Source of the DNA: Prolixibacteraceae bacterium
Lineage (GTDB): Bacteria; Bacteroidota; Bacteroidia; Bacteroidales; Prolixibacteraceae
Assembly: GCA_029975525.1 (NCBI GenBank)
Contig: JARKOX010000037.1
Coordinates: 15,909-79,908 of the forward strand
Reading direction: 5' to 3'
Length of the DNA: 64,000 nucleotides
The notes under the pieces are model-generated. The model did no database searches. It was not told the DNA's origin and saw only the letters and a program-made list of their open reading frames with translations. A program made the translations under genes and the position numbers. Positions 4,613 to 25,334 of the stretch are shown in pieces. Within the stretch, counting starts at the first letter, position 1. Each line of letters begins with the position of its first letter.

Positions 4613-5500
4613 ATGAAAAATATTCCGGTTATCTCTGTCTTCGGCCGTTCGTTGGCCGAAACCTACGAAAAAGCGCTGGTCGCCCTGTACAACCAGGGGA
4701 CACGGTTTAAAACCCAGTACGACAAGCCCGGCGACCCGTTGAGCATCGACTGCACCATGAATCTGACCATCCTGGAGCCTGAAGCCGACCCGGTGATTCA
4801 CCTGGCCTTTCCGGGAGGCATCGACGACCTGAAGGAATATGTGCTTGAGCTGCAGGGGTTGAAGGACCACTGGGTGAAAAATATGAACGACCCCTCCGAC
4901 ACACGCTGGGAATATACCTATCACGGACGGCTGAAGAATTACGGGGTGTGGCGCGAACGGCAAAACGGGACGTCGGTTGAGGCCGGCCCGTTTAAAGTGG
5001 ACCAGATCGAAAAGGTGATTGCCAAACTGTCGGCGCAGCCGTTTACCCGCCAGGCGCAGATGATCACCTGGATGCCCGCCATCGACAACGACTGCTACGA
5101 CCCGCCCTGCCTGCAATCGCTCTGGTACCGCATCCTCGAAGATGAAGAGGGTATTTACTGGCTCAACTGTAACATCCGTTTTCGCAGCAACGACGCCTGG
5201 GGAGCCAGTTTTATGAATATGTTCGGATTTATTCAGTTTAACCGCGAGGTGATTGCCGCCGGAGTTTCGGCCCGCACCGGCCGGACGGTGAAGCTGGGGC
5301 GGCTCAACTGGCAGGCCGACTCTTACCACATCTACGGAAAAGATATCCAGGCTGCCCGGGAGCGGCTCTTCGACCGCCTCGACGAACTGTCGCTGGAAGA
5401 GCGGACGATGAATTTCAACGACCCGTTTATCCGCGACATGTATGAAAGTGCCGGGCCGGTCATCCTCCGGAAGATTGAGCAGCACGACAGCCGGCGCTGA
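4613..5500 (+). CDS. Thymidylate synthase-family protein, divergent (archaeal-like)
   Basis: Collinear with ThyA core motifs. 'DQIEKVIAKLSAQPFTRQAQMITW' matches ThyA 'DQI..V...L...P.SRR.I.SAW'. 'DPPCLQS' sits at the catalytic Cys position. 'FRSNDAWGASFMNM' matches 'QRSxD..LG.PFNI'. 'ADSYHIYG' matches 'GDxHxY'. Confidence 0.6.
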   Translation: MKNIPVISVFGRSLAETYEKALVALYNQGTRFKTQYDKPGDPLSIDCTMNLTILEPEADPVIHLAFPGGIDDLKEYVLELQGLKDHWVKNMNDPSDTRWEYTYHGRLKNYGVWRERQNGTSVEAGPFKVDQIEKVIAKLSAQPFTRQAQMITWMPAIDNDCYDPPCLQSLWYRILEDEEGIYWLNCNIRFRSNDAWGASFMNMFGFIQFNREVIAAGVSARTGRTVKLGRLNWQADSYHIYGKDIQAARERLFDRLDELSLEERTMNFNDPFIRDMYESAGPVILRKIEQHDSRR

Positions 5501-5762: not shown

Positions 5763-6179
5763 ATGGGTTATGCCTATTCCTATAAATGCAGCCGTTGCAG
5801 CTACGAAGAGTACTTCAAGCAGGGATACGGTTTTCAGGTGCGGCCGCAGTCGTTTGACGACTACATGGGGGCCAACCGCAAGCTTTTTCACTACAAGATT
5901 CACGATAAAATTATTTCGTTGTCGAAAGTTCATCCCGACCTGCAGATTGAAGCGGCTTTCCAGGTTTACAAGTGTCCGCGCTGTAACCGACTGCACAACA
6001 AGATACAGGTAAGTCTGGTTTCCGGCGAAGGTAAAAACCACGATGCCGAGTTTCGATGCACCGGCTGCCACACCCGGCTGCGGCTCACCAATATCCACCG
6101 GTTACGGCGGGCTGCCTGTCCTGCCTGCGGTGGACAGACCTTCCACCGGGAGGCTCTTCGCGATGTGTTGTGGGGCTGA
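5763..6179 (+). CDS. Hypothetical Cys-rich protein with four CxxC pairs (two predicted zinc ribbons)
   Basis: ORF-track ORF 5622..6179. The internal ATG at 5763 (MGYAYSYKCSRC...) is preferred as start. Motifs CSRC, CPRC, CTGC, CPAC. No family recognised. Confidence 0.5.
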   Translation: MGYAYSYKCSRCSYEEYFKQGYGFQVRPQSFDDYMGANRKLFHYKIHDKIISLSKVHPDLQIEAAFQVYKCPRCNRLHNKIQVSLVSGEGKNHDAEFRCTGCHTRLRLTNIHRLRRAACPACGGQTFHREALRDVLWG

Positions 6180-8692: not shown

Positions 8693-9571
8693 TTATCTGG
8701 AGCTTAACTTGGTGGTAACCCGGTTGCGGTACTGCCGGGGCGAAAGTCCCATTCTTTTGTTGAAGTCGCGGGTAAAATAGTAGGGGTCCGAATAACCCAG
8801 CCGGAAGCTGATCTCTTTGATCTTCAAAGAGGTGTAATCGAGGAATTCGCACGCTTTCAGAATTTTGAGATGCGAAAAGTAGCTGAGCGGCGGATATCCG
8901 GTGAGGTTGCTGAACAGCGTGGCAAAATAGGTGGGCGAGTAGCCGGCCACCTGCGACAGCTGCTTCAGGGTGAGTTTTTTGTCCAGGTTTTGTTCCAGAA
9001 ATCCGGTTACCCGTTTTACCATCAGGCTGGCCTCGTTGTCGGCTTCGTTCCCGGTTTTGTGGGCATACAGAAAGGTGGCCAGCAGGTGCCCGAAACAGAA
9101 GTGGATATACTCCAGGTTTTCGTTGTGAAACCCGCGCGACAGGTTGTTGAAAAGCTCGTCGAACAGCATGGCGCGGTTGGCCACCAGGTTGCTCACCGAA
9201 GGCAGCAGTTGGCGCACGACCGAAAAATTTTTGCTCAGCAGGTTGGTTTTGGCTCCCCTGAACCCCGCAACCAGCAGATGGCAGTCGCCGGTTTGATCTG
9301 CACAAAGCTGAAACTCCGACAGCTCGGGGACAACACAAAAATGATCGCCCGGGAGGGTGGTCCGCTCCCCCGAGATAAAGATCCGGGCTTTCCCTTTGGT
9401 GCAGTAGATCAGCAGATGAAAAGTGCAGGTTGCCGGAAATTCCCATTTTTCGCCGGCCGGAATAACCAACTCCCCGGTTTCGCAAAGGTAGAGGTCGCTG
9501 ACAACCGGGTTCTGCTGCTGCTCGTCAATAAGTGGTTCAGGAACTTGAAAATACCTGATTTTTCGGATCAT
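8693..9571 (-). CDS. AraC-family transcriptional regulator (cupin-type sensor domain plus C-terminal HTH)
   Basis: C-terminal 'LTLKQLSQVAGYSPTYFATLFSNLTGYPPLSYFSHLKILKACEFL...ISFRLGYSDPYYFTRDFNKRMGLSPRQYR' is a classic AraC double HTH. Divergent from the corrinoid operon. Confidence 0.9.
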   Translation of the reverse strand: MIRKIRYFQVPEPLIDEQQQNPVVSDLYLCETGELVIPAGEKWEFPATCTFHLLIYCTKGKARIFISGERTTLPGDHFCVVPELSEFQLCADQTGDCHLLVAGFRGAKTNLLSKNFSVVRQLLPSVSNLVANRAMLFDELFNNLSRGFHNENLEYIHFCFGHLLATFLYAHKTGNEADNEASLMVKRVTGFLEQNLDKKLTLKQLSQVAGYSPTYFATLFSNLTGYPPLSYFSHLKILKACEFLDYTSLKIKEISFRLGYSDPYYFTRDFNKRMGLSPRQYRNRVTTKLSSR

Positions 9572-9655
9572 AAAACTGGTTTTGGAAGAATAAAAAAAGT
9601 AATATTTTACATCTTTTTCAAAGAAAATACTATTTTTTCAACTGGACAGTTCCGA

Positions 9656-9663
9656 TACTTTTG
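9656..9663 (+). promoter_or_regulatory. Candidate Bacteroidota -7 promoter box (TACTTTTG) for the corrinoid operon
   Basis: Exact match to the TAnnTTTG consensus, 24 nt upstream of the ATG at 9687, within the 115-nt divergent intergenic region. Confidence 0.4.
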
Positions 9664-9686
9664 CTAAAAACCTAAATCAGAAGACC

Positions 9687-10355
9687 ATGAGTGAATTGTT
9701 GCAGAAATTATCCGATTGTATTGAGTTCGGAAAAATTAATAAAGCGGCTCCGTTTCCGCCCCAGATGAAAGGATTGGACGGCGCCGATGAAATCACCCGC
9801 CAGCTGCTTGAGGCGGGAACAAATCCCCAGCAGATTCTGACCGAAGGCCTGATGCCCGGCATGGAGCGGGTTGGAATCAAATTCCGTGAGAACAAGGTGT
9901 TTGTGCCCCAGGTGCTGATGTCGGCAAAGGCGATGAATACGGCCATGGTGCACCTCAAACCGTTTTTTCTCTCGGGCGATGTGAAACAGAAAGGCACTTT
10001 TATCATTGGCACCGTGGAGGGCGACCTGCACGATATCGGCAAAAACCTGGTTTCGATGATAGTGGAAGGAAACGGCTGGAAAGTGGTCGACCTGGGAACC
10101 GACGTCAAGGCCGAACAGTTTGTGGCCGCCCTGAAAGAGCATGCCGGCGCATTTGTCGGCCTGTCGGCGCTGCTGACGACGACCATGGTTAACATGGAGA
10201 AGATTACCAAAGCGATCAAGGAGGCTGTTCCGCAGGCCAAAGTGGCGGTGGGCGGCGCACCGGTAACCCTGGATTTTTGCCACAAAATTGGCGCCGACGC
10301 CTATTCGGCCGATCCGCAGGGCCTGGTCGAATACCTCAATGCGCAGGTTGCCTGA
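9687..10355 (+). CDS. Corrinoid (cobalamin)-binding methyl-carrier protein, MtaC/MtbC-like
   Basis: N-terminal helical cap followed by a Rossmann B12 domain. It carries the 'DxHxxG' motif ('GDLHDIGKN'), 'SxL' ('LSALLTTT') and 'GG' ('VAVGGAPV'). Confidence 0.9.
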   Translation: MSELLQKLSDCIEFGKINKAAPFPPQMKGLDGADEITRQLLEAGTNPQQILTEGLMPGMERVGIKFRENKVFVPQVLMSAKAMNTAMVHLKPFFLSGDVKQKGTFIIGTVEGDLHDIGKNLVSMIVEGNGWKVVDLGTDVKAEQFVAALKEHAGAFVGLSALLTTTMVNMEKITKAIKEAVPQAKVAVGGAPVTLDFCHKIGADAYSADPQGLVEYLNAQVA

Positions 10356-10422
10356 TCCGGCTGGCAGGGAGTTCGGAGAGACGCCGAAAGTCCCCCTTCG
10401 TTAAATTAATAATCTGAAATCG

Positions 10423-12042
10423 ATGAAAGGATTGGAGTTGATCAGGGAAGCGATCTCCCTGAAAGAGACAGAACGTGCCCCGTGGGTTCCGTTTGTGGGA
10501 GTTCATGGCGGCTTTTTGGTTGGTGTCGATGCCGAAACGTACCTGAAATCGGCCGAGTTGATGACGCGGGGCATCAGTAAGGCTGTTGAACTTTACCAGC
10601 CCGACGGGATCCCGGTGGTATTTGACCTGCAACTGGAGGCTGAAATTTTGGGATGCCAGCTTCGGTGGAGCGACACCAACCCGCCGGCGGTGATCTCGCA
10701 CCCGCTTTCCGAAGGGAAAAAGCTGGGCGACCTCTCTCTTCCGAAACCGGAAGAGGGGCGTATTCCGGTTGTGCTGCAAACCACCCGTAATGTGCGGGCC
10801 AAATTTCCCGAACTGGCAATCTACGGATTGATTACCGGACCTTTTACCCTGGCGCTCCACCTGCTGGGAACCGATATTTTTATGAAGCTTTACGAAGCGC
10901 CCGGCGAAGTGGCTGAAGTGATGGACTTTTGCACCCGCGTGGGACTGAAGATGTCCGAATATCTGATTGATGCCGGCTGTGATGTGATTGCGGTTGTCGA
11001 TCCGATGACCAGCCAGATTGATCCCGACACCTTTGAGCAGTTTGTCTCTCCTTATGCCACGCGGATCTTCAGTTTTATCCGGGAAAGAGAGAAGCTCAGC
11101 TCCTTTTTTGTCTGCGGGCACGCCCAGCAAAATATCGAGGTGATGTGCCACTGCCGTCCCGACAATATTTCGATCGACGAAAATATTCCGCTGGATTTTG
11201 TGAAGGAGGTGGCGCTGCGCGAAGGGATCAGTTTTGGCGGAAACCTGAAACTGACGGTGGTGTTACTGATGGGAAGCGAAGATGACGCCCGGCAGGATGC
11301 CCTGAGCTGTTTGGATCTGGGCGGAAACAGGGGGTTTATTCTGGCACCGGGATGCGACCTGCCGATGGAAACCCCTCCTTCCAATGTGCAGGCAGTGGCG
11401 GGACTGGTCCACGATCCGTACCAGCGGGAGATCGCCCGGGCGCTCGACAGCAACGGAAACCGGCTCGAAATCTTCAATATGAAAGATTACGGCCAGTCCG
11501 ACAAGGTGATTGTCGACATCATTACGCTCGACTCCGAATCGTGTGCGCCCTGCCAATATATGGTGGAGGCGGTGAAAAAAATCGCGCCCCATTTCGAAGG
11601 GGTGGTGGAGTGGCGCGAACATGCCATCAAGCGGATGGAAGCGGTTACGTTTATGTCGTCGCTGATGGTGAAAAATATTCCCACCATCTGCATTGATGGG
11701 AAAATTGCCTTTGTCTCCAAAATTCCGCCGCAAAACCTGCTGATTCAGGCTATTCAGAAACGGATCAACGAGAAGCTGCGGCTCAAAATCAAATCGAAAC
11801 ACAGCGAAATCCTCATTTTGGGCGAGAGCCAAGAGAGCTGCCGGGAGCTGAACGAACGGGTGCAGCGTGCCATTACCGAGCTGGGAAAAGAGATCACCGT
11901 TTCGGTGGTGGCCGATCCTGCCCAGATGGCCTCTTTCGGGGTGACCAAAGGACCGGCTGTGGTGGCCGTGAGCTACCGGCTGAAATCGGAAGGGACAGAA
12001 CCTTCGCTGGAGGTTGTCAAGGAGTGGATCAAGGATTTGTGA
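10423..12042 (+). CDS. URO-D/MtaA-CmuA-family methyltransferase fused to two C-terminal thioredoxin-like domains
   Basis: Residues 1 to about 345 are uroporphyrinogen-decarboxylase-fold-like, with candidate Zn ligands in 'FFVCGHAQ' and 'LAPGCDLP'. Residues from about 353 to 539 are two Thioredoxin_3-like repeats. The first has 'SCAPC' (Cys codons at 11542-11544 and 11551-11553) and the second has a degenerate motif. It is a single uninterrupted ORF. Confidence 0.8.
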   Translation: MKGLELIREAISLKETERAPWVPFVGVHGGFLVGVDAETYLKSAELMTRGISKAVELYQPDGIPVVFDLQLEAEILGCQLRWSDTNPPAVISHPLSEGKKLGDLSLPKPEEGRIPVVLQTTRNVRAKFPELAIYGLITGPFTLALHLLGTDIFMKLYEAPGEVAEVMDFCTRVGLKMSEYLIDAGCDVIAVVDPMTSQIDPDTFEQFVSPYATRIFSFIREREKLSSFFVCGHAQQNIEVMCHCRPDNISIDENIPLDFVKEVALREGISFGGNLKLTVVLLMGSEDDARQDALSCLDLGGNRGFILAPGCDLPMETPPSNVQAVAGLVHDPYQREIARALDSNGNRLEIFNMKDYGQSDKVIVDIITLDSESCAPCQYMVEAVKKIAPHFEGVVEWREHAIKRMEAVTFMSSLMVKNIPTICIDGKIAFVSKIPPQNLLIQAIQKRINEKLRLKIKSKHSEILILGESQESCRELNERVQRAITELGKEITVSVVADPAQMASFGVTKGPAVVAVSYRLKSEGTEPSLEVVKEWIKDL

Positions 12043-12117
12043 TGACCGGTTCGGATTCGCCGGAATTCAACTATTTTTATCTGGCGGCTGAAAAATAATA
12101 CCCAAAAAATTCGGAAG

Positions 12118-13020
12118 ATGAATAAAATCAGTGAAGAGGCATTCGGAAAGGTGCTGGTATCCGATGGGGCCTGGGGGACGTTTCTCCAGCAAAAAGGGAT
12201 GAAACCCGGCGAGTGTCCCGAGGCGTGGAATATAACCCATGCGGACGATGTGTTGGATATCGCCCGCAGTTATGTGGAGGCAGGCGCCGATATGATTGAA
12301 ACCAACAGTTTTGGCGGCAGCCGTTTTAAGCTGGAAAAATATGGCCTTGGCGACCGCGTTGACGAGGTGAACCGGGCGGCGGCGGCCCTCAGTCGCCAGG
12401 CTGCCGGAACCGGCCGGCGGGTGCTGGGATCGATGGGGCCTACCGGGAAAATATTGATGATGGGCGACGTGACGGAAGCGGAACTTTACGACGCTTTCCG
12501 CGAGCAGGCGGTAGCCCTCGAAGCAGGCGGCGCCGACGCCATTGTGGTGGAGACCATGACCGATCTGGAAGAGGCGTGCATCGCCGTGCGTGCTGCGCAC
12601 GAAAATACCCGGCTGGAGGTGTTCTGTACCATGACTTTTGACAAACTGCTCACCGGCGGTTACCGCACCATGATGGGGATCGCCCCGGCCGAAATGGTGG
12701 AGCCGCTGCTGGCAGCCGGTGCGTCGGTAATCGGAGCCAACTGCGGAAACGGTATGGCCGGCATGGTGGAAATCGTCCGCGAGATCAGAAGCGTAAACAG
12801 CCGGGTGCCGGTGCTGGTCCATGCCAATGCCGGCATGCCCGAATACCGCGACGGCCAAACGGTTTTTCCGGAGACTCCCGGCGAAATGGCAGCCAACGTG
12901 CAGGCGCTGATCGCTGCCGGCGCCAATATCATCGGCGGCTGCTGCGGAACCACACCGCTCCATATCCGCCTTGTAAAACAGGAGGTTGACCGGTTGTGTG
13001 ACCGGAGTAATTGTTTTTGA
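12118..13020 (+). CDS. Homocysteine S-methyltransferase-domain protein (MetH N-terminal module-like)
   Basis: Pfam S-methyl_trans-like TIM barrel. Zn Cys-triad positions are conserved: 'IGANCGNG' and 'IIGGCCGTTPLHI'. 'ADMIETNSF' is typical of the MetH Hcy domain/BHMT/MmuM. Confidence 0.85.
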   Translation: MNKISEEAFGKVLVSDGAWGTFLQQKGMKPGECPEAWNITHADDVLDIARSYVEAGADMIETNSFGGSRFKLEKYGLGDRVDEVNRAAAALSRQAAGTGRRVLGSMGPTGKILMMGDVTEAELYDAFREQAVALEAGGADAIVVETMTDLEEACIAVRAAHENTRLEVFCTMTFDKLLTGGYRTMMGIAPAEMVEPLLAAGASVIGANCGNGMAGMVEIVREIRSVNSRVPVLVHANAGMPEYRDGQTVFPETPGEMAANVQALIAAGANIIGGCCGTTPLHIRLVKQEVDRLCDRSNCF

Positions 13021-13098
13021 TCCGAAGAAACTTCCGGAGGCGATTTGTAAAAATTCAGTTTGGATATTAACTGGTTTATTCCTGGAAGTACCTGGGTT

Positions 13099-14001
13099 AT
13101 GCAGAAGATACCTTTTCATATTATTTCCGGATTTCTGGGAAGCGGCAAAACCACTTTTCTGAAGCAGATACTCGGGCAGATTCCGGCCGGCGAAAAGATC
13201 GGGGTGGTGCAGAATGAGTTTGCCCCGGCCAACATCGACGGCACGGAATTAAAACAGGCCGGCCGCGATTTTCAGCTGCTGGAACTCAACAACGGTTCGG
13301 TGTTTTGCGCCTGCCTGCTGGGCGACTTTGTCGATTCGCTCAACCGTTTTGTCGACCGTTGCCAGCCCGACCTGGTGGTGCTGGAAGCGTCCGGCCTCTC
13401 GGATCCCACGTCGGTGGCCGAAACACTCTCCCTGCCGCCGCTCTCCGAAAAAATTTACCTGGCAGGCAACTGGTGTGTGGTCGATACCGTTAATTTTAAC
13501 CGTGGCGGACTGATGCGGCAGCGGATCATTCACCAGGTGCGCGCGGCCGATGTTGTGCTGCTCAACAAGGCCGACCTGGCCGGCGACAAAATTGCCGGCG
13601 TCAAAGCGGAAATCCGGCAGATCAACCCTTTTGCCGATCTGCGCGAAACCTCGTTTGGCCAGGCTTTCTTTCAGGAAGAGCTCCAGCCGGTGAAGAAGTT
13701 CTATTTTGACCGGGTGGCGCCGCTGGGACGCCCCGATATTCAATCGATGGTTATTAAAAGCGGAAAACGGTTGACCCGCGACCGTCTGGAGAAATTCCTG
13801 AACCAGTGGGCGCCGCTGGCCTACCGGATCAAAGGGTTTGTCGCCCTGGCCGATGGCGCTTCGGTGGCCGTGCAGTGCACCCTCGGCACGGTCGAAATTA
13901 AACCGGTGGAATGGCTGGCCGGCCCAACCGAACTGGTTGCCCTCACCGACCGGTTTACCCTGCCGGAGTGGAACCGCTCGTTCCGGGAATATGCCGGATG
14001 A
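13099..14001 (+). CDS. COG0523/CobW-family G3E GTPase (putative metallochaperone)
   Basis: Walker A 'GFLGSGKTT', Walker B-like 'LVVLEASGLSDP', 'LLNKADL' (NKxD), and a CobW_C-like tail. The usual CxCC motif is 'CAC' here. Start chosen at the ATG at 13099; the ORF track starts at 13060. Confidence 0.8.
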   Translation: MQKIPFHIISGFLGSGKTTFLKQILGQIPAGEKIGVVQNEFAPANIDGTELKQAGRDFQLLELNNGSVFCACLLGDFVDSLNRFVDRCQPDLVVLEASGLSDPTSVAETLSLPPLSEKIYLAGNWCVVDTVNFNRGGLMRQRIIHQVRAADVVLLNKADLAGDKIAGVKAEIRQINPFADLRETSFGQAFFQEELQPVKKFYFDRVAPLGRPDIQSMVIKSGKRLTRDRLEKFLNQWAPLAYRIKGFVALADGASVAVQCTLGTVEIKPVEWLAGPTELVALTDRFTLPEWNRSFREYAG

Positions 14002-14058
14002 AACGGGGGCTGACACCGCTTTATCCGTCAGTTTTTTACTGCTTCCGGCCGTCGGCCG

Positions 14059-15618
14059 CTATTTCTCCGGACCAAAAATCTCCGGGCTATCCGGATTTCT
14101 GTAATCGAAAAAATTAATTCCTTTTTGTTGATAAAGTTTCAGCATTGAATTCATCCGTTCGAGGAAACGTTCGCGGTTTTTGGCGTGGCTTTCCGTCCAG
14201 GCTGCTTCGGCCAGCGCCGACAAACGCGGATAAAGCATAAATTGCAGCCGTTCGGGGGTGTGAATCGTTTCGCTCCACACATTGGCCTGGATCCCTTTTA
14301 CCAGTGGGTCGGTTACCGATATTCCGTCTGAGAAATAGTTGTCGGGAAAATCGTACACCGCTTCAATGGGCGCATAACTGCCCTGCCATTTGCGGCCGTG
14401 CGTGTGCGTTTTGTTTTGAACAAAATCAAAATAGAGCGGGATGCGCGGGCATAAAACGACCTCGTAATGTTGGGCAATCGCCTTGTTTAGCAGGGGTTTC
14501 TGGTCGTGGCGCCACCACATCACCAGCGTGTTGGTGTTCGGAAGTCCTGCAGTAACCACCTCATCCCAGCCCACCACTTTTTTTCCGATCGTTTGAATGG
14601 AGTCGGCCATCCGGTTCAGGAAATAGTGCTCCACCTCGACCAGGTTTTTCAGCTTTTGGGAGTTCATCAGTTGCTGCACCTCGGGCAGCGCCGACCAGTG
14701 TTCGTTTCCGAAATGAACCTCGTCGCCGCCGATGTGAATATAGTCAGAAGGGAAGAGCCCGGTCACTTCGCGCAGAATGTTGGTCAGGAAGGTGTAGGTG
14801 CCTTCTTTTCCGGGGTTGAAGGTGAAGTCGGGATATCGCTCCGAGCCGCCCCCGTTGAATTCGGGATAGGCTTTGACCGCCGCAGTGGCGTGTCCGGGCA
14901 TGTCGATTTCGGGGATCACTTCGATAAACCGCTGGCGGGCATATTCCACGATTTCGGCAATTTCCTCCTGCGTGTAGAAACGGGCAGGAGCAGCAGGGTC
15001 GGTGTGGTTGCCGATTCCGCCGGTGGTGGTTAGCCGCGGATACTGTTTGATTTCGATTCTCCAGCCCGGGACGTCGGTCAGGTGCCAGTGGAATTTATTG
15101 AGTTTCTGCAGGGCCATCAGGTCGAGGATTTGTTTGACCTGCTCTTTTCCGAAAAAATGACGCGATTCATCGAGCATAACCCCGCGCCATCCGAAACGGG
15201 GCTGGTCTTCTATCACCGCACAGTTGAGCGTACCTCCCGGCTGTGCTTCGTTCAGCAGCTGAAGCAGGGATTGCAGTCCGTAAAAACAGCCCTGGTCCGA
15301 GCCGCCTTCAACCACTACTCCGTTTTTGCCGATCGTCAGTTTGTAGGCTTCCGCCCCGCTGATCTGCTTGGTGCGCACCAGCCGGATAAAGCCATTTCGG
15401 GATTTTTCGTTTACGGTTATTCCGTAAAAATCTTTTGCCGACCGGGCAAAAACCGGAATCAGGGCGGCCAGCTCTTTTTCGGCAGCCGAAATGGTTAGCT
15501 TTGCCGGAACAGCCAGTTGGCCTGGCTGCGGCTGGTAGCGGTTGGGAAATGGGGTGATTGGCTGTGCGTTACACCAAAGCAGTAACAGGGTGGCTAAACT
15601 TGTAAAAATTAGACGCAT
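14059..15618 (-). CDS. Beta-N-acetylhexosaminidase, GH20
   Basis: Signal peptide. 'FHWHLTDVPGWRIEI' and the catalytic 'HIGGDEV' motifs. Confidence 0.9.
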   Translation of the reverse strand: MRLIFTSLATLLLLWCNAQPITPFPNRYQPQPGQLAVPAKLTISAAEKELAALIPVFARSAKDFYGITVNEKSRNGFIRLVRTKQISGAEAYKLTIGKNGVVVEGGSDQGCFYGLQSLLQLLNEAQPGGTLNCAVIEDQPRFGWRGVMLDESRHFFGKEQVKQILDLMALQKLNKFHWHLTDVPGWRIEIKQYPRLTTTGGIGNHTDPAAPARFYTQEEIAEIVEYARQRFIEVIPEIDMPGHATAAVKAYPEFNGGGSERYPDFTFNPGKEGTYTFLTNILREVTGLFPSDYIHIGGDEVHFGNEHWSALPEVQQLMNSQKLKNLVEVEHYFLNRMADSIQTIGKKVVGWDEVVTAGLPNTNTLVMWWRHDQKPLLNKAIAQHYEVVLCPRIPLYFDFVQNKTHTHGRKWQGSYAPIEAVYDFPDNYFSDGISVTDPLVKGIQANVWSETIHTPERLQFMLYPRLSALAEAAWTESHAKNRERFLERMNSMLKLYQQKGINFFDYRNPDSPEIFGPEK

Positions 15619-15905: not shown

Positions 15906-18341
15906 TTATTGATTATCAAAATTTACAACAATATCTCTTGTCCTTGATTTTGGAAAAACTATCAACTGTACTATTTTGCCGTTTTGAAAACTGCATTTGA
16001 CAGTAGTATTTCCGGGTGCATGCAATTTAAAATCAACATCCCATTCTTTGGGCCAGGCAGGAAACAATATGATTTTATCTTCGATGGTTTGCATTAACAT
16101 TTCTTGAAGACCGATCATTCCGCTTCCTCCCCAGTTATGATCTGGAACCCAGTCGTGACCAGGGCCCCAAAACGTTGGAAAACGGCGTTCGCTGTCCTGT
16201 AACTTTTTGATATTATAATCAGCTGCTTCTTCAGTCATTCCCATTCGGGCAAAGAAAATACCGTCTTGATGCCAGCTTTGCACCATATTTTTAGGAAATT
16301 TTCCATGTTTCCATGTGTTTCTGAAAATAGTCATATCATCTTTTCCAAGATAAAAACGATTAAACGGGAAAAGGGGATAAAATTGAGGGCATTCCACATT
16401 CTGGTATTTCAACCACGACCATGCGGGTTTTATTATTCTATCGCCATCTACCTCATCATAATCAAAATCAGGAATACTATTTAAGTATTCCTTGTAATAT
16501 TTTCTTTTTTCAGTATCGAGGTATTTTTCGTCCAGTATCAGCAATGCTTCAAGGCAAGCTTTCAGACCTGCTGTCAAATCTGACGGATTTTTTGCCCCCC
16601 GATATGATTCGCATGAAGTAGATGGATAAATCACAAGTTTGCCATTTTCATCAAGTTCATTCCCGTTACGCATCTTCTGGCGCAACCGGTAGTGTTTATC
16701 GAAGAATATTAACGATTGTTCTATAAAAGGGATATAAGCAGAAATGTCGTTCCCAGTGAAGCGATGGTATTCCAAAATCATATAAGCATGTTCTACTTGC
16801 GATTCCCAATGATAAGCAATTGATCCGTTGGCCATTATTCCTTTCTCTACTACCTCTCCAAAACCAGTTGCAGCATTTGCACGCGGATCGCCAAAGGGTA
16901 TTTCCTCTCCTCTGATACGATAGTTGTAATCATTCTGCCAACCCCATCCATCTCCCATAGCAATTCCGGGAACACTGGTATATTCGCAATAAATTGCTCC
17001 TTCGTGTCCAAAATATTTCTTTACCCGCGCTGTAGCGCCGGGCAGCCCTTTTCTATAGAGTTCAAATTGGGGCAAAATGGCATCAAAATCCCCGGATTTA
17101 AGCATTGGCCAATATAACAAACGTTGATTCTGGGCTGTAAAAACTGCCCCGCCCCATTGCCGCCAGTCTGGATCGTGAACTACCTTTTCGTTTACCAGCA
17201 CCGGATCAAATGTTAGGTTTCCTCCGTTGAATTTTGCCGGATATTCGCCAAATACATTTCCTCCTAGCTGGTAACGGAACAACTGATAATTTCGCCCCAT
17301 TTGCCAAACTGGATTTTTGGGATCCGGATTTTTAGACTGAATAAAAATGTAACTTCGGTTCCAGAACTGATGCCACCAGTCAACTGTTTTTTCAAACGTC
17401 TGTTCTGGATTTTTAGTGGCGGCATCCTTTACTTTCGAAAGGTTTTCTTTCCATTCTTCAATAGTTTCGGTCTGCCCGATATTGGTTGCAATTAAAATCA
17501 AGTGATTTTTTTGAGGGTTCTTAGTTTTCAGTTTCCATGATTTAAACGGAGTTTGTTGATAGATGCCTTCTCCGACTTCACCGAATACGAAATTTTCGCC
17601 AAACAATATGCCCCCAAAAGTGCGATTTTTCAAATCGTCGGTAATCTCTGCGGCATATTCTTCCAAACCCTGTTGTTCAATAAGCACTTCAGGGATAAGT
17701 TTATTCGTGGGATTTCTGTGAAAGAATGTTATCCCATCGGTAGTTTGTTCAATGATATCTTTCGACCGAATTACTTTCCCCGGATAACCTTCCAGGTTAA
17801 ATGCGGAAAAACGTTCCTTTTTCTGCGGTTCGCCCGACAATTCCATACTTTCGGTACGCCAGCTTTCATACGAAACCGTGACATCAGTATTTTGATTCGA
17901 CTTTACATCGATATAAATTACCGGGTGAAAAACATCGATCCACAGTTTCAGCTTCGTTTTGAGCACGTCTGGAGAGCCATTTTTTTCAGATTCAATTTCG
18001 ATATATCCGTCTTTTAGCTTCAGCTCCTGACGGAAAAAAGATTCGCCTTCAAACGGATCTGGGCTTAGATGTAAGCGAAACCTTCCGAGTTTTAAATATT
18101 GGCCGTTTTCGTCCATGCTGCCACTTCTTTGTAGATAAAAAAGAATATCACCGTTTTCCACCCAAACATTACAGCCAATGTCTCCGCCAACTAGCGGCAT
18201 CGATTCTGAGGCATTTTTGCTTTGTGTCCTCCAGATAATGTTATATTGTTCGTAATTTTCCGGAACATTTTGCTTTATGGTACATGCCTGAATTAAAAAC
18301 AATCCAGACAAAACAATCCGGCTAAGCTTAACTTTTTTCAT
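15906..18341 (-). CDS. Putative glycoside hydrolase, unassigned family (beta-sandwich N-domain plus (alpha/alpha)6-like; resembles DUF5703-type PUL proteins)
   Basis: 811 aa with a lipoprotein signal ('LFLIQAC'). The N-terminal 'MPLVGGDIGCNVWVENGDILFYLQRSG' pattern is analogous to the GH95/GH65-type N-domains. Located in the PUL. The family call is from memory only. Confidence 0.55.
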   Translation of the reverse strand: MKKVKLSRIVLSGLFLIQACTIKQNVPENYEQYNIIWRTQSKNASESMPLVGGDIGCNVWVENGDILFYLQRSGSMDENGQYLKLGRFRLHLSPDPFEGESFFRQELKLKDGYIEIESEKNGSPDVLKTKLKLWIDVFHPVIYIDVKSNQNTDVTVSYESWRTESMELSGEPQKKERFSAFNLEGYPGKVIRSKDIIEQTTDGITFFHRNPTNKLIPEVLIEQQGLEEYAAEITDDLKNRTFGGILFGENFVFGEVGEGIYQQTPFKSWKLKTKNPQKNHLILIATNIGQTETIEEWKENLSKVKDAATKNPEQTFEKTVDWWHQFWNRSYIFIQSKNPDPKNPVWQMGRNYQLFRYQLGGNVFGEYPAKFNGGNLTFDPVLVNEKVVHDPDWRQWGGAVFTAQNQRLLYWPMLKSGDFDAILPQFELYRKGLPGATARVKKYFGHEGAIYCEYTSVPGIAMGDGWGWQNDYNYRIRGEEIPFGDPRANAATGFGEVVEKGIMANGSIAYHWESQVEHAYMILEYHRFTGNDISAYIPFIEQSLIFFDKHYRLRQKMRNGNELDENGKLVIYPSTSCESYRGAKNPSDLTAGLKACLEALLILDEKYLDTEKRKYYKEYLNSIPDFDYDEVDGDRIIKPAWSWLKYQNVECPQFYPLFPFNRFYLGKDDMTIFRNTWKHGKFPKNMVQSWHQDGIFFARMGMTEEAADYNIKKLQDSERRFPTFWGPGHDWVPDHNWGGSGMIGLQEMLMQTIEDKIILFPAWPKEWDVDFKLHAPGNTTVKCSFQNGKIVQLIVFPKSRTRDIVVNFDNQ

Positions 18342-18445
18342 TTGTCAAAATTAATTGTTCTTTTAAATGGCTTTTAATTCTCCTACTTTAGTCATTTTCC
18401 TGTGAGAGGAACGGTTCTTATAGTTGTTAAGTCAGTTAGGAAATT

Positions 18446-20707
18446 TCATTTCTTTTTCAGACCATAAAAATTATATTGCTTTTCCTCTGTTTCAACAGGT
18501 TCAATTTTGAGATCAGCCGTATTTTTAGTGTATAAAATCATTTCTTTCCCTTTTTCAATATTCAGAACAAAAGTACTTTCACTTGCTTTTTTTATTTTGC
18601 CTCCGGAGATTTTGAATGTACCATTAAATTCGGGCTCAATGATGCAAAGTTCTCCTGTGTTATTTTTTACCCTGACCCAAACTACTTTACCATTTTCTTT
18701 TTTTGCTGAAACTTCAAACCCTCCTTCTGCTCTCAGGTTGTGAAAAACAACATCTTTCCAGCTATCGGGAACTCCGGGGAAAATACGGATTTTATCGCCC
18801 CAGCTTTGAATAAGCATATCCAGCAACATTCGGCATAACCCCCCATAGGTTTCGGAACAAGGATTTCTGCCTTCAGCATGAAAGGTATTTGGATAGAAAT
18901 TGGGAGAAGCCAAGGCAAGGTTCAAATGTTTTAATGCGTTTTCGCCGTCTTTTACAGACGAATACATTGAACTTATTACAGCTTGTGTCCATGTATTGGG
19001 AATAGCAGGCGATCCCCAATATTTTAATGATCGAAGTATGACTTCCCTGTTTTGTGGCTGATCCCAATTAGTCAAGTAATACGGATAAATCTGGAACAAA
19101 TGACACCAATGGCGATGCATTAGAGGCGCTGATAATTGCGCCGAACACATATAACCGTTTTCATCGACAGGAAACGGTAATAAATGATCAACCACGTATT
19201 GCCACTTTAATTCCAAAGAGTCTTTTAAGTGTAACTGTTTATTTATTTTCAATAGTGTTTGGCAACCCCATTTCAACGACGAAAGATCGTAATTTGTATC
19301 TGTAGCTTCAGTTGATTCAGGAGAATGCCCGTAAGGTGTATGGACAATTCCGTTTTCATCGGTATATACCTCGTGTAACATCAAATTTACGGAACGTCGT
19401 AAAAGCGGGAAGAAATGATTTTTTAAATAGTCTTCATCCATTGAGACCCTATAATATTCCCACAAATAGTAGCACAAATAAGTCAAGTTGGAGCGTTCGG
19501 GGGCTTCGGGAGACGGCCACGTAAGGGTGCTTTCGTCCATGTCAGGCCCGGTGCAACGAGAAACCCCGGCCGAATTGTACTGCCATTTTTCAGGAGCAGC
19601 AGCAATGAGTTTGTCGTTCATTTTAATCAGATAATCGGGCAATGTGGAAGCTAGTTTCAGTTGATTGGAAATATGCAGCGAGCTGTATAGCATTTGAGTA
19701 TTCAGGTTCCACCAGATGCCAGGCCAGCTTGTTTGTTTATACCACGGTCCCATTAAATCACAAAGCGGGCCTTCTTCTCGCATCATACTTGCAAATTTAT
19801 ATTGCTGGATCCAATATACACTTTCCATTCTTGTATGCGGTACCGATATAAAACTACGGGTGTAAAAATCATTCCACCATGCACGGTGTTTTTTGATTTC
19901 CTCATCCGTTTTTTCTGGAATTGAGATCTCTTTGATTTTTTCCACTGCCAGTTCTACCGATTCTTTTCCGGGATAGCTGTCCTGGATGGTCACAAACAGC
20001 CTAGTTTTTCCGCCGAAGATTTTTGTAATCTTCCAGGCAATGGTGTAGCTGCCGCCGGCATCCCTTTTCTGAGTGCAAACATGAATCCCATCGATAAACG
20101 ACCATTCAGGTAATGGATTCAGGTAGCGTTTTCCTACCTTTGGATTCCGGAATACAATGGATGCATCGGGATGATACATCCAGTAGCACTGAAGTCCCAG
20201 AGGAACTTCCATTTCGACCATAATGGCATTATAATCGCGAAAAACAAGCGTTTTAAGTGTCATGTCACCTTTTTCGGGGACAGTAATATTCAGTCCGGTT
20301 TCGGCATTGTACAGATCAAGGCGACCGTTTGCATTCGAAAAAGGATAATTCATTTCCAACGTGAAATGGCCGATGGGAAGGCGTCCGTTATCCACAATAC
20401 TATTGGCATTGGAATTCCGGTGTTCCACCACATCCGCTCTGCCGATGTCCAACCTGAGTTTCTCACCTTCTGGGGCATAAAGTAAAGCACCTAACAATCC
20501 ATTTCCCAGAAACGGTGCAGCAAAATAATCATCGGGCATCCTCTCCCAAATCAGATCGTGCCTAGATAGAAATTCCTTCCAGTTTACCTTATCTGTAACC
20601 ATCCCGGATCTTGTTCCGGCAAAAATGTGAGTATTTAGTAAGAATAGTAAAATACTCACATATTGCGCTTTCTGCCATATCTCAATGGGAATGGATGATT
20701 TCTCCAT
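18446..20707 (-). CDS. Putative glycoside hydrolase, GH95-like fold, unassigned family
   Basis: 753 aa with a signal peptide. The N-terminal 'FLGNGLLGALLYAPEGEKLRLDIGRADV' echoes the GH95 'PLGNGRMAAM...' motif. Located in the PUL between two other hydrolases. Confidence 0.5.
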   Translation of the reverse strand: MEKSSIPIEIWQKAQYVSILLFLLNTHIFAGTRSGMVTDKVNWKEFLSRHDLIWERMPDDYFAAPFLGNGLLGALLYAPEGEKLRLDIGRADVVEHRNSNANSIVDNGRLPIGHFTLEMNYPFSNANGRLDLYNAETGLNITVPEKGDMTLKTLVFRDYNAIMVEMEVPLGLQCYWMYHPDASIVFRNPKVGKRYLNPLPEWSFIDGIHVCTQKRDAGGSYTIAWKITKIFGGKTRLFVTIQDSYPGKESVELAVEKIKEISIPEKTDEEIKKHRAWWNDFYTRSFISVPHTRMESVYWIQQYKFASMMREEGPLCDLMGPWYKQTSWPGIWWNLNTQMLYSSLHISNQLKLASTLPDYLIKMNDKLIAAAPEKWQYNSAGVSRCTGPDMDESTLTWPSPEAPERSNLTYLCYYLWEYYRVSMDEDYLKNHFFPLLRRSVNLMLHEVYTDENGIVHTPYGHSPESTEATDTNYDLSSLKWGCQTLLKINKQLHLKDSLELKWQYVVDHLLPFPVDENGYMCSAQLSAPLMHRHWCHLFQIYPYYLTNWDQPQNREVILRSLKYWGSPAIPNTWTQAVISSMYSSVKDGENALKHLNLALASPNFYPNTFHAEGRNPCSETYGGLCRMLLDMLIQSWGDKIRIFPGVPDSWKDVVFHNLRAEGGFEVSAKKENGKVVWVRVKNNTGELCIIEPEFNGTFKISGGKIKKASESTFVLNIEKGKEMILYTKNTADLKIEPVETEEKQYNFYGLKKK

Positions 20708-20734
20708 GTTTTGTTTTTATCTGGTTTACTTGTA

Positions 20735-23143
20735 TCACATCATTTTTTTCAGATCACGTGACTCTCCCGGTTTTAAGGTTACTTCCAACGTTTTTTCGTT
20801 ATATTGAACCGTGCATGTTCCTCCTTTCGGAGAAGAGATTACAGCCGTTTTCAGCAATTGGTTATCCCAGCTGATATCCATAAAAAATCCGCCCCTTGCC
20901 CGCAGGCCTTTAACTCTTCCTGAAGACCAGGCATCAGGCAGCGCAGGTAAAAGATGGACAATATAATTGCCGTTGTTATCTTTTCTGTGGCTCTGGATCA
21001 GCATCTCTGCCATTCCAGCGGTTGCCCCGAAGTTGCCGTCGATCTGAAAGATACTTCTTGCATTTAACAGGTTGGTTTCCATACCCGAAGAAATCAACGA
21101 CCTGAGCGACTGTACTGCCTTTTCCCCATCATACAACCAGGCATACATAAGCATGGCATGTGCTGCGGCCCAGCCACCACCACCCTGTCCGTTTTTTTGC
21201 CGCCAGTCAAGGCTTTTGCGGGCTGCTTCATATAAATTTGACGTTTCCGACGTAAATAGCGCAAATGGATGTAACCCCAGTAAATGTGAAAGATGGCGAT
21301 GTCCAGGTTCGTTTTCAACCATTTCATCTCTCCATTCCATAAGTTTTCCGTTTTTATCCACCGTAAATTCCGGGAGTAAATGCTGCGCTGTTTCAATCTG
21401 CTCGCAGATTTGCTCTGTAGTCCCAAGAATTTCCGCCGCTTCAAGTGTGGCCTGAAAAACCGCCCTGATCACTGAGAGATGATAGGTGGAAGTGGCTGTG
21501 ATTCTAATTTGCCTTCCTGTTTCCTGATCGATATATGCATTTTCGGGCGATGCTGAGGGGACAAAATGCAATCTGCCCTCTTGGTCAAGGATCAGTACAT
21601 CCAGGATAAACTTGCTGGCTCCTGACAGCAATGGGAACAATTCATTTTTTAAAAAATCATGATCCCTTGTGAATTCGTAATGATCCCAAAGATTCATGAC
21701 CATCCACGCACCAGCTAGCGGATCAAGCACGCCGTTGATAAATTGGGATTCCGGAGTTGAAGCAGAGGGTGTAAATCGGCCAAGCGGATTGGTGGCAAGA
21801 CATGCAAACCAGCCATCTGAACCATACATCTCCTTAGCCAGTGGTCTGCTCAGTTCGGCAAGTGCAGTAAACCAGTTGATAAGCGGGCGGTTGGTCTCCG
21901 AAAGATTCGTTACATCCGACGGCCAGTAATTCATCTGCAGATTCACATTGAGATGATAATCTGCTTCCCAGGGGGCCCATTCCCTTTCATTCCACTTGCC
22001 CTGTAAATTGGCTGGAAGTATGGCAGGATTTCGGGAACTTCCCATCAATAGATAACGACCAAACTGAAACAGTTTAATCATCAGGTTGTTGTCTTCGGCG
22101 CCTGCACCAAATGCTGCAAGTTGTTTATCCAGAGGGATGGTATCATTTGATGATGGTCCGAGATCCAGACTCACCCTGTTGAAGATTGTACTATGCTCAC
22201 GAACATGTGCACTTTTCATTTCATCCCACGATTTTTCCTGAACCGCCGTTAAAATATTATCTGCCCTTTTTCCTGGATCCAGTGAAGAATCAAAATTAAG
22301 TTTCTGTAGGTTATAGTCAGTGGTAGCTGTAAAGACCACTAAAATATCATCGGTTTCATTTATTTTAAGGATCTGACCTTCTGGATTTATCTGTCCTCCC
22401 TTGCTCTTTACGGCTAATCGTCCGGCAAAGCGCATATGTTTCCCGCCTGGACCTGAACTTCCCGCATTGTCATCATAGGCATCAGGCGCTTCAATATCGA
22501 CAATCTGCCCATCCATATGTATCCTTCCATCTGGGAAAACTGAAAACGATGCGTCTTTAAACCGGCTCAGTGCAAGCGCTAAATTCAGTTTTTCTTTTCC
22601 TGTAGAGGTGATTCTGACACACAGTACGTCATCTTCTGCAGAAATAAAAGCTTCCTGGGTAATTTTTGTTTCTCCGGAAAGATACTCAACACGCGAAATT
22701 CCAGATACCATGTCCAGTTCTCTCCGGTAATTCGAAATCGGGCCAGCCAAATCCAAATCGACCAAGAGGTCACATAAGGGTTCATACGACCTGAAAGATG
22801 TAGGGCGAACCGTTAGTTTTTCCACACCAAAATCATGAGCTTCGGCAAGTTTTCCTGCCATAACCAGTTTTTGGATCTTTTTGAGGTTTTTGAAATAGTT
22901 TTCCGGTACCGGATTAATCTGGGTTCCGGCCCATAAACTTTCCTCATTCAGCTGAAAACGGCTGGTATCGGTACCGCCGTAACACATGGCCGCCATCCGG
23001 CCATTACCAAGCGGAAATGCGTCGGCCCATTTTTCTGCAGGCTGATCATACCAAAGCTTGACCTCCTGGTGTTCCGGTGAGGAACATGACAAAATGAGAT
23101 GACTTAGCAGAAAAGAGAGAATTATTGGTGCAATAGTTTTCAT
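20735..23143 (-). CDS. GH95 alpha-L-fucosidase-family glycoside hydrolase
   Basis: Lipoprotein signal ('LILSCSS'). Classic GH95 N-terminus 'LWYDQPAEKWADAFPLGNGRMAAMCYGGTDTSRFQLNEESLWAG'. About 800 aa. Confidence 0.85.
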   Translation of the reverse strand: MKTIAPIILSFLLSHLILSCSSPEHQEVKLWYDQPAEKWADAFPLGNGRMAAMCYGGTDTSRFQLNEESLWAGTQINPVPENYFKNLKKIQKLVMAGKLAEAHDFGVEKLTVRPTSFRSYEPLCDLLVDLDLAGPISNYRRELDMVSGISRVEYLSGETKITQEAFISAEDDVLCVRITSTGKEKLNLALALSRFKDASFSVFPDGRIHMDGQIVDIEAPDAYDDNAGSSGPGGKHMRFAGRLAVKSKGGQINPEGQILKINETDDILVVFTATTDYNLQKLNFDSSLDPGKRADNILTAVQEKSWDEMKSAHVREHSTIFNRVSLDLGPSSNDTIPLDKQLAAFGAGAEDNNLMIKLFQFGRYLLMGSSRNPAILPANLQGKWNEREWAPWEADYHLNVNLQMNYWPSDVTNLSETNRPLINWFTALAELSRPLAKEMYGSDGWFACLATNPLGRFTPSASTPESQFINGVLDPLAGAWMVMNLWDHYEFTRDHDFLKNELFPLLSGASKFILDVLILDQEGRLHFVPSASPENAYIDQETGRQIRITATSTYHLSVIRAVFQATLEAAEILGTTEQICEQIETAQHLLPEFTVDKNGKLMEWRDEMVENEPGHRHLSHLLGLHPFALFTSETSNLYEAARKSLDWRQKNGQGGGGWAAAHAMLMYAWLYDGEKAVQSLRSLISSGMETNLLNARSIFQIDGNFGATAGMAEMLIQSHRKDNNGNYIVHLLPALPDAWSSGRVKGLRARGGFFMDISWDNQLLKTAVISSPKGGTCTVQYNEKTLEVTLKPGESRDLKKMM

Positions 23144-23607: not shown

Positions 23608-23615
23608 TTAAAGTA

Positions 23616-25322: not shown

Positions 25323-25334
25323 GTCTCTTCGATT

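Follow-up and report, generated by a model that had tools for sequence, protein, structure and literature searches.

What route would methyl groups take through an operon that encodes a corrinoid protein, a homocysteine module and a second methyltransferase, all without a folate-binding module? The question is raised by four genes in a 64,000-nucleotide (nt) stretch of Prolixibacteraceae bacterium contig JARKOX010000037.1, hereafter the window. On the plus strand these genes encode, in order, a stand-alone corrinoid (B12) carrier protein of 222 amino acids (aa) with B12-binding_2 and B12-binding domains (positions 9687-10355); a 539-aa protein, here called URO-D-Trx, in which an MtaA-like URO-D domain is fused to two thioredoxin (Trx)-like domains (10423-12042); a stand-alone, 300-aa homocysteine module of the MetH type with an S-methyl_trans domain (12118-13020); and a COG0523 (G3E) GTPase with cobW and CobW_C domains (13060 or 13099 to 14001). 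The four genes are closely spaced and do not overlap, with gaps of 67, 75 and 78 nt (the last 39 nt if the GTPase begins at a TTG codon). We give a probability of about 45% to the reading in which these genes form the conserved core of a modular, MetH-like corrinoid hub that operates without a folate module.

Domain identities, motifs, synteny and co-occurrence are what the sequences show; the model built on them proposes the direction of transfer, the substrates, the client of the GTPase and all of the catalysis. The corrinoid protein would serve as a hub cycling between Co(I) and CH3-Co(III), on which two thiol-type methyltransferases would dock. At the homocysteine module (PF02574), a Cys3-Zn site would activate homocysteine, which would then be methylated by the methyl-corrinoid protein to give methionine; the second half-reaction of MetH would thus be carried out by a separate subunit, as it is by MtgE in split MetH. 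URO-D-Trx would catalyze the remaining half-reaction, which does not involve folate, with a partner that offers sulfur or a similar soft heteroatom. The GTPase would be a dedicated maturation factor for URO-D-Trx, presumably inserting its metal, and the Trx domains may keep enzyme or substrate thiols reduced or act as a structural lid. Repair of Co(II) would fall to an S-adenosylmethionine (SAM)-dependent, MetH-type activation protein or to RACo, presumably encoded elsewhere in the genome. The system would probably move its methyl groups without folate.

Pfam and NCBIfam profiles upheld every domain assignment that had been made in an earlier, sequence-only reading of this stretch. The corrinoid protein combines a cap domain (B12-binding_2, PF02607, 5e-19) with a Rossmann B12-binding domain of the base-off/His-on type (B12-binding, PF02310, 6e-25); its NCBIfam matches to the MtgC, pyl_corrinoid and MtbC-like models are all under cut-off. 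The DxHxxG motif ascribed to it as an MtaC/MtbC-type carrier is present as GDLHDIGKN and, together with SALLTTTM and GGAPV, is at least 95% conserved among 69 sequences. The homocysteine module matches S-methyl_trans with an E value of 8e-71 and scores 265 bits against the YitJ N-domain, 242 against PRK07534 and 173 against MetH in NCBIfam, all below the full-length cut-offs. Among solved structures it is most similar to the homocysteine domain of Thermotoga maritima MetH (1q7m, 173 bits), with which its NC...GGCCG zinc cysteines align. The motifs NCGNG and GGCCGTTP are at least 95% conserved among 61 sequences, so all three Zn-Cys positions named from the sequence alone are confirmed. The locus has in common with MetH a PF02574 barrel with three zinc cysteines and cap plus B12-binding domains with DxHxxG. 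Because the Cys3-Zn site and the MetH-type homocysteine motifs are intact, the module should demethylate the methyl-corrinoid protein to yield methionine, which is the least uncertain of the catalytic steps proposed here.

The identity of the second methyltransferase is less canonical. The URO-D-fold domain of URO-D-Trx, MtaA-like, spans residues 6-331 (nt 10438-11415; Pfam URO-D, PF01208, E 2e-57), and its best solved relative is MtaA of Methanosarcina mazei (4ay7; phmmer 2.5e-27; Foldseek TM 0.81, obtained with the confident N-terminal ~270 residues of an otherwise poor AlphaFold model). Scores against the curated MtaA/CmuA profiles are 159.7 bits for TIGR01463 (cut-off 235.4), 164.5 for PRK06252 (cut-off 244) and 144.7 for MtaA_Meth (cut-off 400); the fold is closest to MtaA, and the curated threshold for the MtaA/CmuA family is not reached. 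His240, which binds zinc in the His-x-Cys motif of MtaA, corresponds to Phe229 in URO-D-Trx (motif SSFFVCGH). Across 20 aligned members of the URO-D-Trx family, Phe229, Cys231, His233 and Cys311 (in APGCD) are invariant. Both cysteines of the His-x-Cys...Cys zinc triad are therefore kept, the histidine is not, and His233 lies two residues after Cys231. Phe-x-Cys is also typical of the next-closest clades, and the canonical His-x-Cys reappears only in more distant relatives. The earlier URO-D/MtaA-CmuA assignment holds for the fold and for the kinship with MtaA; it fails on the canonical zinc histidine and on the family cut-off. Public databases annotate the fused enzyme variously as 'thioredoxin family protein', 'uroporphyrinogen decarboxylase family protein' or 'MtaA/CmuA family methyltransferase'.

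C-terminal to the barrel, Pfam Thioredoxin_3 matches URO-D-Trx in two stretches. Trx-like domain 1 (about residues 351-451, nt 11473-11775; NCBIfam match at residues 369-446) has an invariant CAPC motif and a cis-Pro-type IPT, and matches the NCBIfam model 'HUIPC-motif thioredoxin-like (seleno)protein' with an E value of 6.7e-10. Trx-like domain 2 (residues 462-537, nt 11806-12033) is of the MTH895/ArsE type in NCBIfam and has a single conserved cysteine, Cys473. No coenzyme M biosynthesis genes were seen in the 64-kb window, and we know of no Bacteroidota that make coenzyme M. According to the rule of Kountz and Balskus (PMC10418091), URO-D methyltransferases that act on thiols or selenols carry His-Cys-Cys, whereas O-demethylases lose the cysteine ligands. 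URO-D-Trx looks sulfur/thiol-type because MtaA and MtbA are its nearest characterized relatives and both cysteine ligands are kept. Judged from these sequence features, it would most likely be an MtaA/MtsA-like methyl-corrinoid:thiol methyltransferase, reversible in principle.

The fourth gene encodes a G3E P-loop GTPase (cobW, PF02492, 3.5e-37; conserved GFLGSGKTT) followed by CobW_C (PF07683, 5.5e-7). Its likely start is the ATG at 13099, which gives 300 aa and is the codon chosen by gene callers on identical contigs; the TTG at 13060 is an alternative. Scores against the CobW and ZigA equivalog models are far below cut-off. The canonical metal-binding motif of COG0523 proteins is CxCC. Among 67 sequences, the corresponding motif here is a near-invariant NGSVFC[V/A]CLLG (NGSVFCACLLG in the window), that is, CxCL rather than CxCC, so the domain architecture of a COG0523 chaperone is present and its CxCC metal motif is not. 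The CxC-Leu motif may mark a distinct metal or client specificity of this subfamily.

In most related loci the GTPase gene lies directly 3' of URO-D-Trx or of the homocysteine module, and URO-D-Trx and COG0523 form the most persistent pair. They are still adjacent in loci that have no homocysteine module or corrinoid protein genes (L070, L074, L076, L079, L081, L083 and 16 metagenome loci). This tight pairing suggests that the GTPase matures the atypical metal site of URO-D-Trx rather than serving both methyltransferases. The original rationale for the GTPase, namely two Zn enzymes in need of a metallochaperone, is weakened: the URO-D site lacks the zinc histidine, the GTPase has no CxCC, and the GTPase tracks URO-D-Trx and not the homocysteine module.

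The cluster is widespread and well conserved. The exact URO-D-Trx protein is found on 7 independent contigs or assemblies with identical synteny. At E<=1e-10 the family comprises 4516 clusters; the top-scoring 120 are without exception fusions of ~539 aa with 73-99% identity. Species-representative genomes (one genome per species) hold at least 584 matches. Among the best 80, most are from Prolixibacteraceae (Draconibacterium, Maribellus and Mariniphaga, including cultured strains), Cyclobacteriaceae and other Bacteroidales, and single metagenome-assembled genomes of KSB1 and Verrucomicrobiota are also among them. The carriers are mostly sediment and wetland Prolixibacteraceae and their relatives. 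We compared 81 non-redundant loci from species-representative genomes (59-78% identity), considering metagenome loci separately. URO-D-Trx is accompanied by the corrinoid protein in 67 of the 81, by COG0523 in 66, by the homocysteine module in 60 and by a divergent AraC gene in 39. The gene order is conserved in 60 or more of these genome loci and recurs in metagenome loci. The four genes are syntenic across relatives, which answers the check proposed earlier, and their grouping is not due to chance. At least 16 of the closest relatives have the minimal gene set without extra methyltransferases.

Between genera, orthologues are 70-87% identical. Because this matches the range of core genes, the comparison indicates that the operon is old and under strong selection. 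We rejected the possibility that it is a horizontally acquired island: the GC content of the cluster is 55-57%, that of the flanking core genes gltB and gltD is 54-56%, and orthologue identities track taxonomy. A polysaccharide utilization locus (PUL; GH95, DUF5703, SusCD and anti-sigma genes) at 15906-29843 has 2-kb windows mostly at 40-47% GC, compared with 49-57% on both sides, which suggests that this segment, and not the operon, was acquired more recently. Insertions break up the operon in some related loci (L008:11755-12189; L010 and L028, ~12141-14153; L031:11880-14700). One of them is a Y1 transposase between URO-D-Trx and the homocysteine module. Another, in L010 and L028 (Maribellus and Draconibacterium), is a 464-467-aa lipoprotein with a thioredoxin-type WCGPC motif, read by eye from the sequence, that stands between the homocysteine module and COG0523.

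Candidates for the enzyme that would load the corrinoid protein (the first methyltransferase, MT1) appear when the family is surveyed more broadly. About 13 genome loci and a dozen metagenome loci have extra URO-D-family genes inside the operon or beside it. These genes encode two types: canonical MtaA-like proteins with HICGD, and proteins of ~340-420 aa (c11 type) in which His-x-Cys is kept and the second cysteine is replaced by His or Asn. Examples of the latter are L057:4455-5720, L084:9680-10696, L092:8296-9351, L096:964-2187 and 12538-13713, and L080:8111-9283. Since the second cysteine is lost, the Cys-ligand rule (PMC10418091) makes these paralogues look O-type, that is, O-demethylase-like; O-type paralogues accompany URO-D-Trx in more than 20 loci, L092 among them. 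They are often found beside genes for GH120, GH13 and GH38-like glycoside hydrolases (GH), GFO/IDH/MocA proteins, esterases and sugar transporters, and they could be corrinoid-dependent O-demethylases for methylated sugars. We found no description of O-demethylases for methylated sugars of this URO-D type in the literature.

More generally, the contexts of related loci are often carbohydrate-related (GH120, GFO/IDH/MocA, 3-keto-disaccharide hydrolase and MFS transporter genes), and the window itself, from a Bacteroidota genome, carries at 23.6-28.7 kb a SusC/SusD PUL that includes GH95 and GH20 genes. Two arrangements bear on the direction of methyl transfer. (i) A gene for MtaB, the methanol:corrinoid methyltransferase (PF12176, 519 bits), is found at L096:4322-5695, on a non-methanogen metagenome contig with a glycan-degradation array. 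There, URO-D-Trx and COG0523 are co-directional with MtaB, a GH38-like protein, an esterase/NPCBM protein and three more URO-D paralogues; a second MtaB, a fragment, lies at L146:20618-21325. (ii) The distant locus L092, in which URO-D-Trx has a single Trx domain, consists of a TrmB regulator, a sugar ABC transporter, GH13, a URO-D paralogue, the corrinoid protein, URO-D-Trx and RACo. This operon has no homocysteine module, and URO-D-Trx is its only candidate for the unloading enzyme (MT2).

Does URO-D-Trx, then, load the corrinoid protein or unload it? The first answer is a linear route, in which URO-D-Trx would be the MT1 that loads the corrinoid protein from one donor sensed by AraC, such as a methylthioether-type compound (methanethiol, dimethyl sulfide (DMS) or methylmercaptopropionate), a methylselenide, methanol or a methoxy compound, and the homocysteine module would be the only outlet. 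With a sulfur donor, the two steps could sum to X-S-CH3 + homocysteine -> X-SH + methionine, the direction proposed in the sequence-only reading. Nothing else in the AraC-linked unit of four genes is a candidate loader, and the minimal set of the closest relatives likewise has no extra methyltransferases. MtsA, CmuA and MtpA are MtaA-family enzymes that load corrinoid proteins, the homocysteine half-reaction is a strong thermodynamic sink by established MetH chemistry, and a coexisting canonical MetH fits accessory donor scavenging. On the other hand, L092, L161, L080 and L096 have no homocysteine module and keep the corrinoid protein, URO-D-Trx, an activase and other probable loaders; URO-D-Trx is the only plausible outlet in these loci. 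Moreover, an MT1 specific for its substrate would rarely be conserved at 60-78% identity across families, and an outlet to methionine alone cannot carry catabolic flux. We regard the linear route as possible and rather doubtful. The earlier proposal of a folate-independent path from a donor to homocysteine draws support from the architecture, from the analogy with a folate-free MetH and from the coexistence with MetH; URO-D-Trx, cast there as the loader, may equally be a second unloading enzyme on the thiol side.

The hub model allows another direction, a two-outlet methyl sink in which both a thiol X and homocysteine would accept methyl groups and a variable MT1, encoded elsewhere as in relatives, would load the corrinoid protein. 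We lean slightly toward an outlet or bidirectional role for URO-D-Trx, because of its kinship with MtaA and MtbA, its kept cysteine ligands, its high conservation and its position as the only outlet beside MtaB and the O-type paralogues.

Several observations weigh against the hub model or limit its details. (i) The AlphaFold model of URO-D-Trx has a mean pLDDT (predicted local distance difference test score) of 59, with residues 273-460 below 50, and is too poor for placement of the Trx domains. (ii) The replacement of the zinc histidine by phenylalanine makes zinc binding and thiol chemistry uncertain. (iii) A distant relative, P0130, has no CxxC, so the Trx domain may be non-catalytic. (iv) Every related locus was retrieved by searching with URO-D-Trx, which makes the constancy of this protein in part an artefact. 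(v) Adjacency to MtaB occurs in only two loci, L096 and L146. (vi) Neither an activation protein nor an activase is encoded within the window. (vii) The window holds the corrinoid protein and two methyltransferases, and no loader besides URO-D-Trx; clear MT1 candidates (MtaB and the O-type URO-D paralogues) occur only in relatives. The AraC-controlled unit would be self-contained only if URO-D-Trx loads the corrinoid protein, which favors the linear route.

The fate of the folate and reactivation modules bears on the next alternative. All open reading frames of at least 150 aa in the window were scanned with Pfam, and tblastn was run with the activation domain, RACo and the domains of E. coli MetH; no MetH, MetE, pterin-binding protein, RACo/RamA activase or MetH activation domain was found in the 64 kb. 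Nor did tblastn uncover an overlooked gene for RACo, an activation domain or MtaB there. The pterin and reactivation modules of MetH are thus both absent from it. The four E. coli MetH domains were also used as tblastn queries against the window and 168 related loci (2.3 Mb), and no pterin module (PF00809; E<=1e-3 for the tblastn) was detected in this set. In 30 of the 81 related loci, a gene of ~234 aa directly 3' of COG0523 encodes a stand-alone MetH activation domain (PF02965, 33.2 bits, cut-off 25; RxxPGY...SVSG signature), for instance at L016:13604-14314 and in L020, L057, L084 and L086. Genomes that encode this protein can have, in addition, a full-length MetH, activation domain included. 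RACo-type activases stand next to the cluster in L043, L072 and L073 and, among more distant loci, in L092 and L161. The earlier statement that no pterin, activation or RamA-type module is visible is thus true of the window, and for activation it does not extend to the wider family. The picture of a split MetH minus its folate module gains strength: in the 30 loci with PF02965, the gene set is MetH without the pterin module, plus URO-D-Trx and COG0523.

The E. coli B12 and activation domains also have matches of 49-65% identity in the C-terminal half of a canonical MetH on the minus strand of L049 (20025-21617) and L126 (20426-21298), in each case ~8 kb from the cluster and truncated by the end of the locus. 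Since a canonical MetH lies so close, the cluster appears, at least in these two relatives, to be accessory to MetH and not the only methionine synthase, and any effect of its loss on methionine synthesis may be masked. For the same reason we rejected, as a general reading, the idea that the cluster is the sole or housekeeping methionine synthase.

It is very unlikely that the system is a folate-dependent split MetH after all, in which the URO-D-Trx barrel would bind methyl-tetrahydrofolate and take the role of the pterin module of MtgD or MetH. The gene content would suit this, being MetH with URO-D-Trx in place of the pterin module and, with the activation domain of the 30 relatives, otherwise complete, and the URO-D fold is related to MetE barrels, which occur among the Foldseek matches. 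However, we know of no URO-D-family enzyme that uses a pterin. With a complete E. coli-type MetH beside the cluster, as in two relatives, a second synthase dependent on folate would be superfluous, and AraC control, MtaB, the O-type paralogues and the glycan genes point away from housekeeping folate chemistry. An analogy with MtoA does not help, since MtoA is MtrH-like (PMC8630106), and we rejected a pterin methyltransferase role for the URO-D protein as argued from that analogy.

Highly improbable, finally, is methyl-Se/S salvage as proposed for type 1 mlp clusters, in which URO-D-Trx would demethylate methylselenol, dimethylselenide or methylthio compounds, its Trx domain would reduce selenenyl-sulfide or diselenide intermediates and homocysteine would only absorb the methyl group: the HUIPC-motif (seleno)protein match of Trx-like domain 1, the kept cysteine ligands typical of S/Se-type URO-D methyltransferases and the gap that a homocysteine module would fill in mlp clusters, which have no identified methyl acceptor (PMC10418091), are outweighed by enzymes that are not Mlp orthologues and have no histidine of the His-Cys-Cys triad, by the absence of selenium genes from the window and the recurrent neighbors, by the carbohydrate-active genes that make up the recurrent contexts and by Bacteroidota carriers, which go unmentioned in PMC10418091.

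Expression of the operon would be governed by the AraC-family regulator encoded divergently on the minus strand (8693-9571; 292 aa), whose N-terminal sensor domain is cupin-like and whose C-terminal part is a double helix-turn-helix (HTH_AraC 1.8e-20, HTH_18 2.9e-19, and a weak AraC_binding match at 0.005). An orthologue of 48-61% identity has the same divergent position in the 39 genome loci counted above. The regulator would make the operon inducible by some small molecule. Between the two transcription units lies an AT-rich control region of 115 nt (9572-9686); all five genes and this gap were found where the first inspection had placed them. The region contains a TAnnTTTG-type motif (TACTTTTG; 9656-9663), 23 nt upstream of the corrinoid-protein ATG, which we take to be a Bacteroidota -7 element, following the Bacteroides promoter consensus. 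Neither the window nor six related loci gave a match to any Rfam family, riboswitch or other RNA, at the gathering threshold, and on these grounds we rejected control of the operon by a SAM or B12 riboswitch. Hairpins follow the COG0523 stop codon at 14046-14058 and 14081-14095.

A GntP permease and a Zn-ribbon gene recur upstream of the cluster in about 15-18 loci; we do not count them as parts of the system, as they are confined to the closest clade, lie on the other strand and vary in spacing. In the window, a 138-aa, four-Cys zinc-ribbon protein (5763-6179, plus strand) is encoded 3' of a ThyA-like gene (4613-5500, plus strand). The latter encodes a divergent thymidylate-synthase-like protein (39.6 bits in Pfam; 96 bits against the archaeal-type TIGR03283, under its cut-off of 175) and is not recurrent near the cluster. 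Farther away, 26 kb from the operon and unlinked to it in relatives, are a ZIP zinc transporter (40129-40902, minus strand) and tandem Fe/Mn superoxide dismutases (41520-42119 and 42208-42843, plus strand), which suit a facultative anaerobe.

Methanogens, acetogens and, as found recently, marine Proteobacteria have modular B12 methyltransferase systems. The operon described here would add a widespread Bacteroidota version whose methyl groups leave or enter by way of something other than folate or coenzyme M. It would also give COG0523 GTPases a new class of client and exemplify an MtaA variant without the canonical zinc histidine. If the homocysteine module works as predicted, its hosts could make methionine from non-folate methyl donors. 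If URO-D-Trx is a thiol-side outlet, it could explain how non-acetogenic fermenters of methylated plant or algal glycans or of methanol dispose of methyl groups, and could account for some sedimentary methanethiol and DMS. In the broadest form of this idea, which we consider unlikely, URO-D-Trx with COG0523 would be a hitherto unrecognized methyl-corrinoid:sulfide/thiol methyltransferase which, together with the homocysteine module, disposes of methyl groups free of folate and the Wood-Ljungdahl pathway in abundant anaerobic, glycan-degrading Bacteroidota and their allies. Methyl groups from O-methylated sugars and methanol, delivered by neighboring O-type paralogues and MtaB, would then end up in methanethiol or DMS and in methionine, and the operon would provide a genetic basis for the thiol-dependent O-demethylation that has long been observed in sediments and for anaerobic demethylation of methylated glycans. 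These possibilities are directly testable in cultured carriers, namely Mariniphaga anaerophila DSM 26910, M. sediminis SY21, Maribellus mangrovi and Maribellus sediminis.

Full-text literature searches found no paper describing this gene combination, the closest being PMC12478193 and PMC10418091, and no published characterization of a Bacteroidota system of this composition, in line with what had been said from the sequence. One of the closest known counterparts is MtgBCDE of Phaeobacter inhibens and Ruegeria pomeroyi (PMC5764234, PMC12478193). It, too, has a stand-alone PF02574 homocysteine module (MtgE) and a stand-alone cap plus B12-binding protein (MtgC) that works for more than one methyltransferase, encodes its repair proteins separately and links methionine synthesis to the demethylation of other compounds. 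In that split methionine synthase, MtgC serves the homocysteine module, the pterin module and glycine-betaine loaders. MtgBCDE differs in its pterin-binding MtgD, its MttB-family MtgB loaders, its repair by RamA and DUF1638, its aerobic proteobacterial hosts and its dispersed genes. The present system, in contrast, has no pterin module, pairs URO-D-Trx with COG0523, has a PF02965 protein in relatives, is arranged as a tight AraC-linked operon and coexists with MetH.

With MtaABC and MtsA/MtsB the operon shares a URO-D enzyme, here nearest MtaA/MtbA, and a small MtaC/MtbC-like corrinoid protein, and in two related loci MtaB lies next to URO-D-Trx. MtsA also sets a precedent for a single URO-D enzyme that both loads and unloads its corrinoid protein with thiol substrates. 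Against these systems stand a family score of 160 bits versus a cut-off of 235, phenylalanine in place of the zinc histidine, two fused Trx-like domains, Bacteroidota hosts and the coupling to a homocysteine module and a COG0523 GTPase. Type 1 mlp clusters (PMC10418091) likewise come from non-methanogens, combine MtaA-like enzymes with a corrinoid protein, have no tetrahydrofolate (H4folate) methyltransferase and are proposed to act on methyl-S or methyl-Se compounds. However, they are mostly from Firmicutes, contain two or three Mlps with intact His-Cys-Cys, always include a Ram/RACE activase and, unlike the operon here, have no homocysteine module, Trx fusion or COG0523. We rejected membership in this type, since the zinc triad, architecture and hosts all differ.

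The anaerobic O-demethylases (Odm/Vdm of Acetobacterium, Dhaf_4610-4612, MtvABC and MtoABCD) follow the same logic of MT1, corrinoid protein, MT2 and activase and include URO-D-superfamily methyltransferases, and the related loci described here carry O-type URO-D paralogues and RACo. Their MT2 is a pterin- or MtrH-type enzyme that passes the methyl group to H4folate or tetrahydromethanopterin (H4MPT). No pterin- or MtrH-type enzyme was found here as an MT2 delivering to H4folate, H4MPT or coenzyme M; the candidate outlets are instead the homocysteine module and the MtaA-like, thiol-type enzyme, and there are no aromatic-catabolism genes. Core-MetE and MesA-D (PMC7857596, PMC7005905) resemble the operon in making methionine from homocysteine with a methyl-corrinoid or methyl-corrinoid protein and not with methylfolate. 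They are MetE-type barrels, whereas the homocysteine enzyme here is a PF02574 barrel of the MetH type.

Like the COG0523 metallochaperones CobW, ZigA, YeiR and ZNG1, the GTPase has a G3E domain followed by CobW_C, and its gene lies beside that of a putative metalloenzyme client. It differs from them in its CxCL motif and in its apparent client, the corrinoid-dependent methyltransferase URO-D-Trx, a pairing of which we found no description in the literature. Taken together, these comparisons place the operon as a modular corrinoid methyltransferase system that is, as far as our searches show, uncharacterized, and one that extends the known paradigm rather than breaking it.

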